Assembly: GCA_036785375.1 (NCBI GenBank)
Contig: JAWMAR010000841.1
Span: 434,001-498,000 of the forward strand
Length of the DNA: 64,000 bases
Direction: 5' to 3'
Source of the DNA: Leucoraja ocellata
Lineage: Eukaryota
The notes beneath the pieces were generated by a model, which ran no database searches, was not told the DNA's origin, and saw only the letters and a program-made list of their open reading frames with translations. Shown piece after piece: positions 2,471 to 61,865 of this stretch; position 1 is the first letter of the stretch, and the number at the start of each line of letters is the position of its first letter. The translations under genes and the position numbers were made by a program.

Positions 2471-4129
2471 TTGATTCTACTTGCCCTGTTTCCACTTTAA
2501 AATAATTTTCTGTATGTGAATGCTGTTCATGTTTTCATACATCAGAGCGCATTTGGGAAACTGAACATTCTTTATTTTCAGGGCTACCTCCAGCACTTGT
2601 AGTCAAACATGTGACCACTCTCCCATTTCTCATACAGAGTGGTTACAGAGTGAAGGTCACACAACACCATTTCATAAAGCATTTCTAGGTTTGGCATAGC
2701 AAGTGTCAAATTCAAAGTAAACTTTACATTGCCGCATCATGCATAGCCAAGGACGTTGTAATTTAAGTTAAGTTCAAGAACAGTATCATGTTTTACATTG
2801 ACAATTTGACGTAACCTCAGACTTTGAATCCTGAACTTTGAATGTCGTGCTTATAATCAGTAAACTAATCATTTTGGATCTGCTAGAAAGAAATAATCAT
2901 GTTTAAATTATTGAAACATTTACCTTCTGATAAATGGGTTGACACTGCATCAGATTCATTTAATGTACAATCTAACAGTGGAAGCTCATTTTAAATCTAC
3001 GTTGCCATGGGAAAATGGTAAATGGACCATCACTGAGACTGGAGCTTCCACACAAATGGAATTTGTTTGTCAGGTGACCTGTACCATTTTTCTTCTGGAT
3101 GTAGCAGCATGATTAGTTTAATTATATTTCTGACTCTTCTCCGTACACTCTTAATTGTTTGGCCATTATGTAGAGTGGTAGCTTAAGCGTCATTGCAAAT
3201 TTAGAGAGTGCTAAGTGTTTTAGTTCATTGAAGCATTGATCATATTGTAGCCACTGTGTGTTTATAGAGGTTGTATATAAGAAGATGCCCTGGTGTGTGG
3301 TTGCTCCCTCAACCTTAGATGATTACCTTTATGAGGATAGGAAGTCAGTCTTCTAGAGAGAGCCTGTGATCAATCGATAGGATCCTTTCCCCCTCGCTGT
3401 TGGCATCTTTCACCTTAGCTGCCGCCATATTGTGCAGTTGTTTCTATTGGATTGGGGATTTGCATCTGAATTTGAAGGGGTAAATAGAGTTTAACTCATC
3501 AGTGTTTCAGGAACAAATTATGTGGAGAATTTATTAAATTTGCAGATATTCCATTTTAGCACTTTTAGATTTTTTAAGGAACATGGATTTATCTGGATGA
3601 TCGATATTGGTAATTATCAATGATCTGTTTCTTTGTTTCTGATGGTAATACTGCATTTTGTTGGTTATTGCTCCATTAGTTGTTTGATCACCACTATTAT
3701 AGCATTGGTAGTAGATTTTCCTGTATACAGCAGGATGAGTCATGAGCAGTTTGTCATATTCCATTTTAAGTTAAACTGGATTTTGTGTTGTCACTCCAAG
3801 TCAAGCCAGTTTAAAGAAGAAGATGTAACTGTAGATTATCGGGCATTAAGAAAAACTTGAGGAAAATTAGGTGACTCTTTTTCAGATGGCCTCTCGTCCC
3901 CTCTCTTATTCTTCCTCATTAAGCCACCTTGTATTTAAGGTGAGGATTTTTCCAACTCAGATACATAAAACTGTGTAGCAGAGAAATTAAGGAGCCCAAG
4001 CAAATGACAATTAATTTGTGACTTTAGGCGAACATCCAATTCGCTTATTGTGAATGGTCCTCCCCCCCCCCCACCCTCCCCGAGCACTAGTCTGAGGGGA
4101 ATAGTAAAATTAATGGTTAATGTGATTAA

Positions 4130-4257
4130 GAAGGAACTGCAGATGCTGGAAAATCGAAGGTAACCAAAAATGCTGGAGAAACTCAGCGGGTGCAGCAGCA
4201 TCTAAGGAGCGAAGGAAATAGGCAACGTTTCGGGCCGAAACCCTTCTTCAGTCTGAA
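4130..4257 (-). mobile_element. Penelope-like terminal-repeat-derived element with an intact minimal hammerhead core (4224-4251)
   Basis: Minus strand reads CTGAAGA-A-GGGT-TTCG-GCCC-GAAAC-GTT. Family hallmarks gaaggaactgcagatgctgg and tgctggagaaactcagcgg are present. Confidence 0.7.
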
Positions 4258-6169
4258 GCATTTTTTTGTACCTTTGGTTAATGTGATTAATGGTTAATGG
4301 TATAAAGTGATTCCAATGAGAACAGGATTGTGGACTGGGGAATGTTACACCAGCCACAGTAACCACAGTATAACTTATATTTGGGTCTGTTCTTTAATAT
4401 ATGTTTTCACGTCTGCAGAACTATTATGAATTCTCAAGGAATTCAAATCAACAAAACAAGCAACGTTGGGGACAAATTGTTGGAGTATATTTTCCCTGAT
4501 TGCATTTGATCTATGATTATTTTAAAAAGTATCAACCGTGGGAGAGCAGAAGCTTGTTAGAAAAATTGGGAATCCTTCAGTGTGCTTTCCTTTGGGAAGT
4601 CCATTGACTAGAAGCATGGATACATTGAGCACCAAAGGCAGGGGAATGAAGGTGAGTCAGATGGAGGCGATAAATTGAAATTACAGCATGTGTGGGATGA
4701 ATGTTCAGCTGACTAGTGACAGGTGTGACTCTGGCCCTCTGTATGACATTAAAAAAAAACAGGAATGTGTTGGCATCTCCTTTCTTCACTGAACGCAGCA
4801 TCGCATCAGTACCTGGTATTGGACTCTTAATATAACTCATATTCTGATACAAAGGGAATGGGGTATTATCCAGTGCTACCTGTTGTTTCACAATTTTTTC
4901 AAGACAGCCTTTATTGAGCTGCAGGGTGTACTTCAAAATCAATTGATACCCATTTTAGTAGAGGAAGCAGTGCAGAATGCAGGTGAATGTTGTGTGTGGA
5001 GGCCATCCTTGTGTAATTAATGTTTTGGCTAGAAGCATTGAATGACGTCCTGTCTGGCAGCAATGCAGAATGCAACCAAATATTCATGACCCCAATTAAA
5101 TTATATGTTGCCTCTCATAACCTGAGAAAACCCAATAGCTCTTTGCAGACAATACCACATTTGATAAATCTATTACTTGCTCGGTGGGGGGAAATGTGGC
5201 AGCTTGTTTACACATAGCAAGATGCCACAAACTGTATCATGATAATGACCTTGTATTAGTGACGTTAGTTCATGGATAATTATTGGCCAGAAGATCAGAG
5301 AACTCTATTGCTCTTTTGAACAAATGTCATTTGACAGGCAGGCAGGGATTAAACACCTCCTTGGAAAGATCCCAGTTCCGACAGTGTGGCACTTCATCAA
5401 AGCTGAACAGCCAGGATTTCATGAAAGGTTACAATCTCACAACTCTCAGAATTAGAAACAAGCTGACATGCATGTACTGGTTACCAGCAGAGTGAATTGA
5501 GGTCCTGAAATTCGGTGAATAATTCTGGAGGTACATTTTGGTTAAGGCTATTGTTGCCCATTGTCCCAGAGGAGTGAAGCAGTGTTTACAGCTGTGTTGC
5601 TTATGCCCTAGAACATGGAACCTGCAAACTAGAAATTGTTCATCTGACCCAGTTAGATTTTGAATGTCTGTCTGTGAGTATGTCCTAGATAGAACTGAAG
5701 TGTGATGAAATACTGAGAGATGTAGTGCAATTACACAACTGAACACCTGTTGCTTTATTAAAGCTATTAAAGATCTGATGATCTAAGTGGAAAGAAGCGG
5801 GGTTACTCTGCACCCAGGATCCAAAGTATTGGAGTAACTCATCGGGTCTGGCAGCATCTCTGGAGAACGTGGATAGGTGATGTTTCAGTTCGGGACCTTT
5901 CCTCAGTCTGATTGTAGGGGGGGGAGAAGAGAAGAAAGCTAGAAAAAGGGAAGGGCAAGATATAGTGTGGCAGGTAATTAGGTTGACACAGGTTTAGAGG
6001 TATATGAGCCAAACCCAGGAAGGTGGGATTAGTGTAGATAGGGCATCTTGGTCTGTGTGGGCAAGTTGGGTCGAAGAGCCTGTTTCAATGCTCTATGACT
6101 CTTATTTGTTTCGGTTGTGTCTTGTACTTATCAATTGTCGTCAAGTAGTTGCTGATTTGAACTCCAGCA

Positions 6170-26144: not shown

Positions 26145-26528
26145 GAAACAAAATGCATGCTATTCCCTAAACCTTGCATTCTACTTTGGAGTTCAAAGCT
26201 TCTTGCATTCCCTTGGGTAGTCCCTTCCCACGTTTCACACTGGTCTATTATCTTCATATGGTAAAATGTGAATGACATTTGGAGTAACCTTTTATTTCTA
26301 GAGGTTCCCTATCCTTAGCACGTTAGATCTGTAGAAGCATCCATTGAATTGCTTTGGAGGACGCCTCCAGGTGAACACTGCAGAAGTGCAAGCTTGTATC
26401 CAGGTCTGGAGATTGGGACGTGTCACACTCGTTCTTCACTGGCTAGCTTTATTGCTTGACTTGGGTAAAGCTGCCAGTTGAAGAGCTGTTGTGGGCGGCC
26501 ATTATATCGTTGATGGCTTCTGCTAAAC

Positions 26529-28681: not shown

Positions 28682-28745
28682 GTCCAGTTAGCTCAGTTGG
28701 TTTGAGCATAGTGCTAATAACACCAAGGTCGTGGGTTCAATCCCA
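28682..28745 (+). pseudogene. tRNA-Ile(AAT) pseudogene, 3' end lost
   Basis: gtccagTTAGCTCAGTTGGTTtGAGCatagtGCTAATAACaCCAAGGTCGtGGGTTCaATCCC follows the vertebrate tRNA-Ile-AAT pattern (A box, CTAATAA anticodon loop, B box). It shows CpG-type transitions and has no 3' acceptor strand. Confidence 0.85.
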
Positions 28746-28759
28746 CTCCCTAAGGTGAG

Positions 28760-38340: not shown

Positions 38341-39197
38341 TTAAAAAAAAAAATCCAACATGAACAGTAATATTTCAGAATTGGATATGTGAAGAGCCAC
38401 AATGTGAATTTGACCAAACAGTCAGACTGGTGTGCTTCAAATTAATTCTGGAGTCTCCGACTTTCAAGGTGTCAGAATGAGTAGTTTTAAATGAATGATT
38501 TACATTATGATTTTGCGGTTGGATGGAAGAGAAGACGGACTTGCCTTTGTTTAATTGTGTGGGCTAACACACATCTGGTCACTCCCACTCGATACTACTC
38601 CCAGCCACTGCCTCCTGTATAATGAACATATATGTTATGCTGTATCTCTCAATGCCTATGGTTCTGTTTGAGGTTTAAATTAAGGGTCTGAAGATGGGTC
38701 TCGACCCATTCCTTCGCTTCAGAGATGCTGCCTGTCCTGCTGAGTTACTGCAGCTTTTTTGTGTCTACACAGTAATTATATTTCCTAATTCAACATTCAT
38801 GTTCATCGCTGGAGCCATTTTTTAATGCTACAGAGTAATGGAAGGAAGAATTTTTAGCTTCAATAAGGTGATTTTCCCCTAAAGTGATGCTGTTTTGTCC
38901 TCGTTTCATGATTTACGATCCATTTACTGTCCCTTGGAGTAAGCTCGGTTAATGTAAATGGTGTAAGTCACCATCTCTGGCCATGGTGGCACTAATTTTG
39001 TTCTTTATCTTGCAATGTGAAAATTGTCCAGAAGCTGAATGTGATTCTGTTGTTTGAGGGGGAAAACTAGTCTGAAAATATTACTCTAGCAACTTGGTGT
39101 GATTGGAGATGGAGAGTACTTGCATCTTAAACTGGTTATTGGGCTTGAGGGGCTTAACCTGAAAATGAAACCTGATATTGTAGGGGTCTGTGTTTCA

Positions 39198-39321
39198 GAA
39201 GGAACTGCAGATGCTGGAAAACCGAAGGTACACAAAAATGCTGGAGAAACTCAGCGGGTGCAGCAGCATCTATGGAGCGAAGGAGATAGGCAACCTTTCG
39301 GGCCGAAACCTTTCTTCAGAC
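39198..39321 (-). mobile_element. Hammerhead-bearing family copy (same subfamily as 4130-4257)
   Basis: Nearly identical to 4130-4251. Core reads CTGAAGA-A-AGGTTTCGGCCC-GAAAG-GTT. Confidence 0.7.
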
Positions 39322-41809: not shown

Positions 41810-42018
41810 TGTAGGAAGGAACTGCAGATGCTGGTTCACACTGAAGATAGACACAAAATGCTGGAGTAACTCATCAGGTCAGGCAGCATCTCTGGAGAAA
41901 AGGAATAGGCGACGTTCTGGGTCGAGACCTTTCTTCAGACCCTGAAAACCCTTCAGTCTGAAGAAGGGTCTCAATCCTAAACGTCGCCTATTCCTTTTCT
42001 CCAGAGATGCTGCCTGAC
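41810..42018. mobile_element. Same hammerhead-bearing family, two copies in inverted arrangement
   Basis: About 62-nt arms (41878-41940 and 41956-42018) are near-perfect reverse complements. Each carries a mutated CTGAAGA...GAAACGTC core. Confidence 0.75.
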
Positions 42019-43273
42019 ACGCTGTGTTCCTTGTTACTGCCAAATTGCTTCTGATGATCGCCTTGTGAGCTTCAGTTTATAATAGGACGACTTGAAATCT
42101 GAATGCGGACACAGAATGGAAGTGCCCAGTTAATTTTTGCGATTGTTGTGATTTTATCCAGAAAGTGTCATTCGTGCAATTTGTTTCGGAGTTATATCAA
42201 TTCGGAATCAGTTGGCATTGGGAAAACCCAGCACCAGGAGAGTCATTTTATAGGCAAATGTCGTGATTTTGAGTGCAGTCAGCAGCTGATCCCAGTTCAA
42301 ATACTTAGCAATGGTAGCTAAAGACAAATGCTCCCCCACACACGCACACATTTGCTAACCCAATGACTCCTATTGCTCGTCCTGCAACAGGCCACCTACA
42401 AATTAAAAGACAACATTTTCACTGGAGGAAGATTACATGCACATAAATCGTGTACAAGCATGCAACAATTCAGATAGAAACTGCTGATCCATCAGTCTTG
42501 TGACTAAACACATCTTTCCAGCAGTGGCCATACTTTTACCAATGGTGGATGAGTTATATTAAAGAATAAAACTACCAACTACCTACCAGCCATGATGTTC
42601 AAATATCCTTAAGAACGAGAGCACAGAGGAGGGAAAAAGAGATACCTTGAGATGAGCATTATGTGACCACATTATAACTACTAAACCACCCCAATGTCGC
42701 ATATGCCCTTTCTTGCATGCAAGGCCTCTAGATGTGGCTACTGCAACTTTACACACTGCATCTAGAAAGATGCTCACATTTCCATCTCTGCCAGTGTGTT
42801 ACCTACTCCAGCCTTTTAACCAAAACTGGACAGGTGTATGAACAAATAAAACTGATGAAGCATAGAAAAGCGACTGGGCCATCGCGCCTCGGCAGTTGAA
42901 TCACGATGGCTCATGCATCACAATTTAGGCAGCACTTGTCCACCAGAACCATGCAACCTCGTGGGAAAGGTGAGGACATATCAGTTTAAACATTTAATGC
43001 AAGTTATTGGGTAATTTTAATGCACCCCATCAGACATGATCCACTTCTTTCACGTCTTTATTGACATGGGATGCATCATTAGATTTGGAAATAGGGAAAA
43101 GGTTAGCCAGTAAAAAAATTAAATAAAAACGTTTCTATTTAACATGTCATAATTCAGATTGATTTTTTTTTTCATTTAAACTATGACGGGAGACAGCCTG
43201 AGTGGAGCTCTCTCTCCCCTTCTCCATTCGACAATCCCCTCCTGAAATATCATCTGTCCATCTCCTCCACAGA

Positions 43274-61257: not shown

Positions 61258-61384
61258 TGTGTAGGAAAGAACTGCAGATGCTGGTTTAAATCTGGAGAAG
61301 GGTCTCGCCCTGAAACGTCACCCATTCCTTCTCTCCAGAGATGCTGCCCATCCCGCTGAGTAACTCCAGCATTTTGTGCCTACC
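61258..61384 (+). mobile_element. Hammerhead-bearing family copy
   Basis: CTGGAGA-A-GGGTCTCGCCCT-GAAAC-GTC-ACCC at 61292-61323, followed by ccagagatgctgcc...ctccagcattttgtg. Confidence 0.7.
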
Positions 61385-61674
61385 AAGTGTTCTTACTACT
61401 ATGATTAAAGCAAGAGAAATTCAACATCCTAACACATTTATGAAAGAATGTCCCCCTGGACAGAGCTTCTTATGAGGACATTGTAAGCATTTTTAATCCA
61501 TTGCCTTCAGAGATTTCCATGAGTTACACATTTAGTTCATGAAATCAGGGACCATCTTGGGCAGTTGGGACATATGTTGATAGGTGAAGACATTGGTCAA
61601 AAGGTGCAACTTTCGGTGCATTTTAGACCTGGTGCTGCCGGATTAAGAGAATTCAAGAAAAACTAATCTGAGGA

Positions 61675-61865
61675 AACGCTGGAAATGCTCAACAGGTCAG
61701 TCAGCATCTGTGGAAAGAGAAGCAGAGTTTACCCGTCAGGCTGAAGACGTCATCAGATCTTGAACCTGAAATATTAGCCGTCTTTCTTTCCACAGATGCT
61801 GTCTGACCCGTTTGGGATTTCCAGTATTATCTGCTTTGATCTCAGATTTCCAGCATCTAGAGTTT
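61675..61865. repeat. Older palindromic repeat (cagcatctgtgga...tccacagatgctg arms); relics at ~8920-8990, 17750-17900, 18045-18185 and 59540-59712
   Basis: Inverted arms. cctgaaatattag resembles a decayed GAAACGTT hammerhead half. Confidence 0.55.

Follow-up and report, generated by a model that had tools for sequence, protein, structure and literature searches.

The 145-bp insertion at positions 4130-4274 of the window, by which we mean the whole stretch of 64,000 nucleotides of Leucoraja ocellata DNA that was analyzed, is in our reading the 3' end, truncated on its 5' side, of an EN+ Penelope-like element (PLE), with a minimal type I hammerhead core in its terminal repeat that is likely unable to cleave (probability about 0.88). 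The insertion lies between two identical 16-bp sequences. The true length of this target-site duplication (TSD) may be anywhere from 12 to 16 bp, since the four bases of its first copy that adjoin the element also match the usual element terminus. Read from 4251 to 4130, the minus-strand arm begins exactly at C3 of the core, continues through about 65 nt of pLTR and finishes with a tail of roughly 30 nt, equal to the start of the next unit. The same sequence recurs in full-length copies, both after the GIY-YIG stop and before the ORF start. A first-pass annotation, made from the sequence of the window, had proposed an inversion at this copy, which proved to be a second arm, internally deleted and placed head to head with the first (Table 1). 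This inverted arm takes the place of the native 5' strand of helix I, and folding predicts that it pairs with the C3-A9 box. It sets an A opposite a G at the first pair, so that helix I of this copy is reduced to 0 bp. The same head-to-head arrangement was found with a 13-18-nt spacer at L003, L007 and L008 and with a longer spacer at L010, and is usual for PLEs according to the available text of PMC8557442 and PMC3846280.

Other members of the family are scattered over the window. In the pair that starts at 41816, the minus-strand member (41816-41938) has the tail and the plus-strand member (41958-42031) is without it. A further head-to-head pair, at 61673-61864, comes from a much older, diverged family of the same kind.

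Table 1. Coordinates of the insertion at 4130-4274, its parts and other family copies in the window
Position	Strand	Feature	Basis or remark
4114..4129	.	Target-site duplication copy 1, 16 bp	Identity with 4275..4290
4130..4251	-	5'-truncated 3' end of Penelope-like element (pLTR end and tail)	Likeness to genomic and full-length copies
4224..4251	-	Minimal type I hammerhead core	Boxes, bulged A, stems II and III and triplet; sequence and strict descriptor
4252..4274	+	Head-to-head inverted second arm, internally deleted	Core start joined to pLTR end, without tail
4275..4290	.	Target-site duplication copy 2, 16 bp	Identity with 4114..4129
38688..38767	+	Copy cited in the first-pass annotation	GAAA box and triplet deleted
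39199..39319	-	Second young-subfamily copy, 94% identical	Core broken at 15.2
41816..42031	.	Head-to-head pair, older subfamily	Both cores broken
61292..61382	+	Copy cited in the first-pass annotation	A6>G in first box, helix I absent

On the minus strand, the core reads CTGAAGA (4251-4245), A, GGGT, TTCG, GCCC, GAAA (4231-4228), C, G, T and T (H17, at 4224), and is followed by GCC, with the predicted cut between 4224 and 4223. By sequence, it combines the C3-A9 box, a bulged A after A9, a stem II of 4 bp with a 4-nt loop and the G10.1-C11.1 pair, the G12-A15.1 box, a loopless stem III with a palindromic 15.2/16.2, and a GUU triplet. We searched the 64-kb window with a strict descriptor, composed of both boxes, a stem II of at least 4 bp, a palindromic 15.2/16.2 and UH, and the copy at 4224-4251 was the sole match. 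The earlier statement that this copy has an intact catalytic core is therefore confirmed. The copy also has the CUGANGA and GAAA boxes and NUH triplet of the published minimal type I descriptor, its stem II (3-7 bp with a loop, G10.1-C11.1 and an unpaired base after A9) and its palindromic 15.2-16.2 without loop III; the helix I of at least 3 bp that this descriptor specifies is lacking, at 0 bp. A scan of the window with Rfam returned no match to any hammerhead family at E<=1. Elsewhere in the window, a mir-22 precursor lies at 26416-26499 on the plus strand (Rfam score of 75 bits, above the gathering score), and a tRNA-like segment (33 bits) at 28689-28746, also on the plus strand, is followed by repeats of family D10/D15 and is probably the head of a tRNA-derived SINE.

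Several features suggest that the copy at 4224-4251 is dead: helix I is absent, a competing hairpin is present, the triplet is GUU and there is no nearby partner on the sense strand. A GUU triplet cleaves less efficiently than GUC. The UUCG loop of stem II is closed by a U-G pair, and in folding predictions the stem II of the young subfamily is out-competed, the first pair having a probability of 0.01-0.05. With nearest-neighbour folding, the minimum lay 15-27 kcal/mol below the active dimer in every copy tried, those of the old family with a long helix I among them. Folding therefore neither ranks activity nor separates the families.

The origin of the insertion emerged from longer copies, in which the region upstream of the core holds a pyrimidine tract, then a GIY-YIG C-terminus and, about 1.3 kb further, a reverse transcriptase (RT). 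Walking upstream led to tandem junctions with the order pLTR, tail and ATG, where repeat and tail lead into the start codon. A protein search of the genome found at least 116 loci among 197,082 candidates, with a longest open frame of 1241 aa among the matches listed. We examined ten of the longest open frames, and complete pLTR-ORF-pLTR units were present at two of these ten loci (L256 and L257). The element at L256 (G000:C212) has an uninterrupted ORF of 1217 aa and a hammerhead core in each pLTR, and that at L257 has an open frame of 1202 aa and two intact cores; helix I is of 2 bp in both. In full-length elements, about 120 nt lie between the stop codon and the core downstream of it, and about 160 nt between the core and the start codon downstream of it. 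The ORF (L256:2280-5933) includes, in its N-terminal part, a proline-rich stretch with short tandem peptide repeats, whose number varies among copies. At no fewer than 12 loci on small contigs (within L113-L130), a near-identical pLTR-ORF junction recurs with one and the same broken core and deletion, which speaks for multiplication as DNA, in a segmental or satellite-like manner, and not for retrotransposition.

The 1217-aa protein is a single ORF with an RT plus a GIY-YIG at its C-terminus. Read by eye, its motifs include DKG and YIDD, together with a CX4CxxC linker and a region resembling GIY-YIG that carries CCHH; the Pfam matches to RVT_1 (E=7.9e-5) and to GIY-YIG (E=0.012) did not reach the curated cut-offs. 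Searches of short fragments with Pfam gave nothing significant or only weak RVT_1. The closest named proteins are from rays and sharks (57-66% identity), indicating a cartilaginous fish as the source, and more distant matches carry PF00078 and PF01541. Direct pLTRs from a partial tandem, a tail of 30-40 bp, an optional inverted 5' arm and a TSD complete the picture of an EN+ PLE. The linker upstream of GIY-YIG has the CX2-5CxxC form of the Neptune clade, a form also found in Nematis. Judged from its motifs, from which the clade is taken, the element is placed as an EN+ PLE of Neptune/Nematis type, not of Penelope/Poseidon type. The first-pass proposals of a PLE origin and of a minimal type I architecture are thus borne out by full-length elements with RT, GIY-YIG and two pLTR hammerheads, and the extension of the consensus that it had suggested does lead to a linked RT and GIY-YIG ORF. 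The retention of both boxes in young full-length coding elements fits a continued function of some kind.

To estimate the abundance of the family, we relied on a genomic sample of 60 stretches of 10 kb taken at round-number positions from 15 larger contigs (599,400 bases in total, not strictly random), from which the family profile was also built. The profile matched 226 times in the sample and 24 times in the window, as compared to about 15 copies counted originally, and no match was obtained in the shuffled sample. The density of about 377 copies per Mb extrapolates to about 1.3 million in the 3.44-Gb assembly, in agreement with the very high copy number originally proposed. Intact cores, as defined by the strict descriptor, numbered 12 in the 599,400 bases versus 0-1 in each of ten dinucleotide shuffles, which corresponds to about 20 per Mb and, by extrapolation, to about 69,000 in the assembly. 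Haploid totals may be lower than these extrapolations, because the assembly contains duplicated regions, L002 repeating the flanks of the window. This locus (G000:C531:324586-327706) is a near-identical duplicate of the region around 4130-4274 and suggests haplotype duplication. Within the window, the core is intact in one of the 24 matches, namely 4224-4251. What had been called a PLE-derived ribozyme family is PLE-derived, and the word ribozyme overstates it, as about 5% of the copies keep the core. Among the 40 of 983 candidates that were scored, genomic copies are 95-98% identical over 121 nt.

Helix I is where the family departs from a regular minimal hammerhead. The first-pass annotation had assigned to other copies a 4-bp GGGT/ACCC helix, but of the 133 copies that span the core, no more than 6 have GGGT as the four bases in front of it, as against 27 with CAGT, and only the final GT is broadly common (about 71%). 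The helix of the family is of 2 bp. The copies that had been cited for the longer one have broken cores: that at 38689 is without GAAA box and triplet, that at 41937, of the older subfamily, has an altered GAAA box, and that at 61293 has A6>G, with AAAT upstream. Full-length elements read ATCAGT, core and GCCTAT, which gives two helix I pairs, and hence the source elements themselves have the short helix, which is not a product of later decay. Among the 12 intact sampled cores, helix I reaches at least 2 bp in nine and at least 3 bp in one.

A longer helix I is detectable in an older family. We used a search pattern in which the boxes and the 3' strand of helix I were specified and the 5' strand was left free, and obtained 129 genomic matches versus none for the reversed control. 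Of 30 loci fetched, 29 were distinct, and 13 of these were kept as older type by spacing and downstream sequence, with 16 set aside. In 7 of the 13 loci, the four bases before the core are AGTT, a complement of the 3' strand, and in six loci helix I runs over 4-6 bp, hence reaching the 3 bp of the published descriptor. These older loci offer the strongest evidence that the family goes back to a regular minimal hammerhead. Majority sequences of the dominant subfamilies agree in both boxes except for G12, which lies at a CpG, and variation falls on loop II, H17 and the base that follows the cut. Stem II had been thought to vary compatibly; in fact, the dominant subfamilies change loop II and one pair on one side (U-A to U-G). 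All pair changes within them are one-sided, and support from covariation is thin.

We then considered where copies begin. Among the 226 sampled copies, 94 start within -6..+3 of C3, 26 extend into the pyrimidine tract, 105 start further inside and one lies at a locus edge. The 94 (about 40%) should be read as a maximum, since the core was where the profile started and a diverged tract can be mistaken for a start. An inverted partner is present in 21 of them. At the cleavage site, the 226 copies show no excess of 5' ends (8 at positions 27-31, as compared to 7.9 expected per 5 nt), which argues against cleaved RNA as a preferred template. As for the front edge of the core, it may mark the start of transcription, a stop of the reverse transcriptase or a splice acceptor.

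Transcription evidence was taken from four RNA runs, selected by species label, possibly from related species, and read to 1-5% of each; the libraries, fragmented oligo-dT and single-cell, are ill suited for mapping ends and provide a weak test. Within these limits, neither RNA starts nor RNA ends pile up at any point, including the cleavage site, and the ends at the GUC/GUU triplet that the first-pass annotation had proposed as a check do not collect in these partly read runs, which possibly come from another species. Reads cover the stub on both strands, and 77-97% of them extend into unlike flanks, as expected for read-through of embedded copies. At L024:1696-1930, the single-cell runs X21 and X22 differ from the bulk runs in that their reads over the pyrimidine tract and core favour one strand several-fold, possibly due to internal oligo-dT priming. 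Recurrent head-to-tail duplications of 33-34 nt, a length close to that of the tail, overlap the core at L024:1821-1854 and L257:2127-2169, both in RNA reads and in DNA contigs.

If the front edge were a transcription start, each short copy would be the complete cDNA of a short RNA whose start is an initiator-like site, three bases in front of the core. The copies would then be no random truncations and would form a non-autonomous, SINE-like family that the PLE protein mobilises in trans. The motif at -5..+2, TCAGTCT, fits the vertebrate initiator consensus, and the 94 of 226 copies that begin around C3, although an upper bound, are what such an RNA would leave. An Inr-like motif has been reported in a rotifer pLTR (PMC3846280, in its available text). 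L106 begins at about -6 and continues into the ORF. However, starts are scattered over -3..+1 instead of falling on one base, the 14 copies starting at -3 show no excess of an extra G before them (6 G, 5 A, 3 T), the identity between short copies and coding elements is 95-98%, and RNA starts do not pile up in the partly read runs, a weak test possibly made on another species. We consider this origin of the short copies unlikely, if still worth attention. A broader proposal is somewhat less probable again: that the most prolific PLE families of this lineage lost helix I (from 4-6 to 2 bp) and kept both boxes in their source elements, that the motif acts as a start or stop signal, and that the PLE protein copies short RNAs from -3 in trans, so that a family resembling a SINE has grown to about a million copies. 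Their 5' ends would be set by the position of the hammerhead and not by its cut.

We regard as very unlikely that the family is an active dimeric ribozyme or a non-LTR retrozyme, in which neighbouring or tandem copies would cut one another and give rise to circular RNAs. The palindromic stem III that dimers require is present, intact cores occur at about 20 per Mb, full-length elements hold two cores in one transcription unit, and the 33-34-nt head-to-tail duplications overlap the core in RNA reads and DNA contigs. Nevertheless, neighbours are typically head to head (partner in 21 of 94), so that a transcript would carry one sense and one antisense core, and helix I attains 3 bp in just one of 12 intact cores. 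Ends do not gather at the cleavage site in DNA or, with the weak test available, in RNA. In short reads, a circle closed at the cut would show no junction. Dimers of Xenopus retrozymes cleaved in one of nine tested cases, according to the available text of a preprint (bioRxiv 10.64898/2026.07.22.740005). Head-to-tail non-coding monomers, each with a complete hammerhead, were found neither in the window nor among the sampled copies, the tandem units seen contain the ORF, and the loci inspected hold no tandem arrays of a non-coding monomer. The retrozyme alternative is accordingly not supported, the stubs being the ends of the coding element.

It is likewise very unlikely that the CAG before the core is a splice acceptor giving helix I a better 5' strand, as at the D. 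virilis Penelope hammerhead, where the intron end maps to helix I (PMC4209133, available text): a long pyrimidine tract does end in CAG one base before the core, but no joint from ORF end to CAG is among the best-supported RNA joints listed (224 and 63 lesser joints lie outside the list), the 133 listed genomic copies showed no noticeable case of ORF end and core in direct junction, and splicing from the nearest candidate donor would give a 2-bp helix once more.

The preferred reading, that of a 5'-truncated PLE end, agrees with what is published. Minimal type I hammerheads sit in the pLTRs of metazoan PLEs, including Xena, Poseidon and Neptune of fish, the coelacanth having about 4,000 of them and Xenopus about 9,000 (Cervera and De la Pena 2014, PMC4209133). 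According to the available text of this study, the occurrence of such motifs in fish PLE pLTRs, Neptune included, with thousands of dispersed truncated copies, is thus already published. Our family shares with these motifs the CUGANGA-H box, the G10.1-C11.1 closing pair, the loopless palindromic stem III, the core in both pLTRs and the prevalence of single dispersed copies. It differs in helix I, since 11 of the 12 intact cores fail the 3 bp that the descriptor of PMC4209133 needs, although forms with 2 bp are listed in its supplement for D. virilis, Culex and Oikopleura. The extrapolated numbers (about 69,000 intact cores and about 1.3 million copies) are also far above the counts in its available text. 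Cartilaginous fish are absent from Table S1 and Figure S3 of PMC4209133. A search of the literature, with Repbase, Dfam, subscription journals and preprint supplements lying outside it, found no description of the hammerhead of this shark and skate family.

As far as the available text of PMC8557442 and PMC3846280 goes, the element shares with the Neptune and Nematis EN+ PLEs the C-terminal GIY-YIG with CCHH, the CX2-5CxxC linker, DKG, partial tandems, an inverted 5' arm, a 30-40-bp tail on one arm and a variable TSD. Unlike them, it has a longer ORF (1217 aa) with a proline-rich N-terminal insert of variable repeats, and the share of its copies reduced to about 95-130 bp is very high. With the Anolis Poseidon element PAc, as described in the available text of PMC11167929, it has in common two preferred 3' ends that define the tail, an AT-rich target and the absence of cleavage-site ends from RNA-seq, the last being here a weak test. 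PAc belongs to another clade, lacks the CxxC linker and has a hammerhead that overlaps the start codon, whereas ours lies about 160 nt upstream; the activity of the PAc hammerhead has been shown, while that described here is known from sequence. Non-LTR retrozymes also have a type I hammerhead and a PLE pLTR origin, but they are head-to-tail tandem non-coding monomers, in contrast to the dispersed singles or head-to-head pairs found here (bioRxiv 10.64898/2026.07.22.740005 and PMC7229834, available text). The preprint ties retrozymes to pLTRs and includes one chondrichthyan.

From published work on PLEs, the protein of the element would nick AT-rich DNA and prime reverse transcription at the tail, presumably at one of two internal sites that define it, as in the anole element. 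The cDNA of the 4130-4274 copy would then have stopped at the front edge of the core, and the short inverted second arm and the 16-bp duplication would have completed the insertion. Minimal motifs of S. mansoni do not cut as monomers and cut weakly as dimers (PMC4209133), and cleavage by the anole PLE hammerhead needs protein and is dispensable for insertion in vitro (PMC11167929), both according to the available text. The hammerhead of the source element most likely cuts weakly, as a dimer or helped by its own protein, and is probably dispensable for each insertion. Once inserted, copies would decay neutrally, chiefly by CpG loss at G12 and 15.2/16.2.

Hammerheads of this kind are known from PLEs, and the value of the present family is as material for the study of their function. 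With its requirement for 3 bp or more in helix I, the published descriptor would pass over about nine in ten of the intact cores in this genome. The genome offers an intact element of 1217 aa together with families of long and 2-bp helix I, whose cleavage could be compared side by side, and a very large sample of insertion ends, in which copies start at the front edge of the core rather than at the cut.
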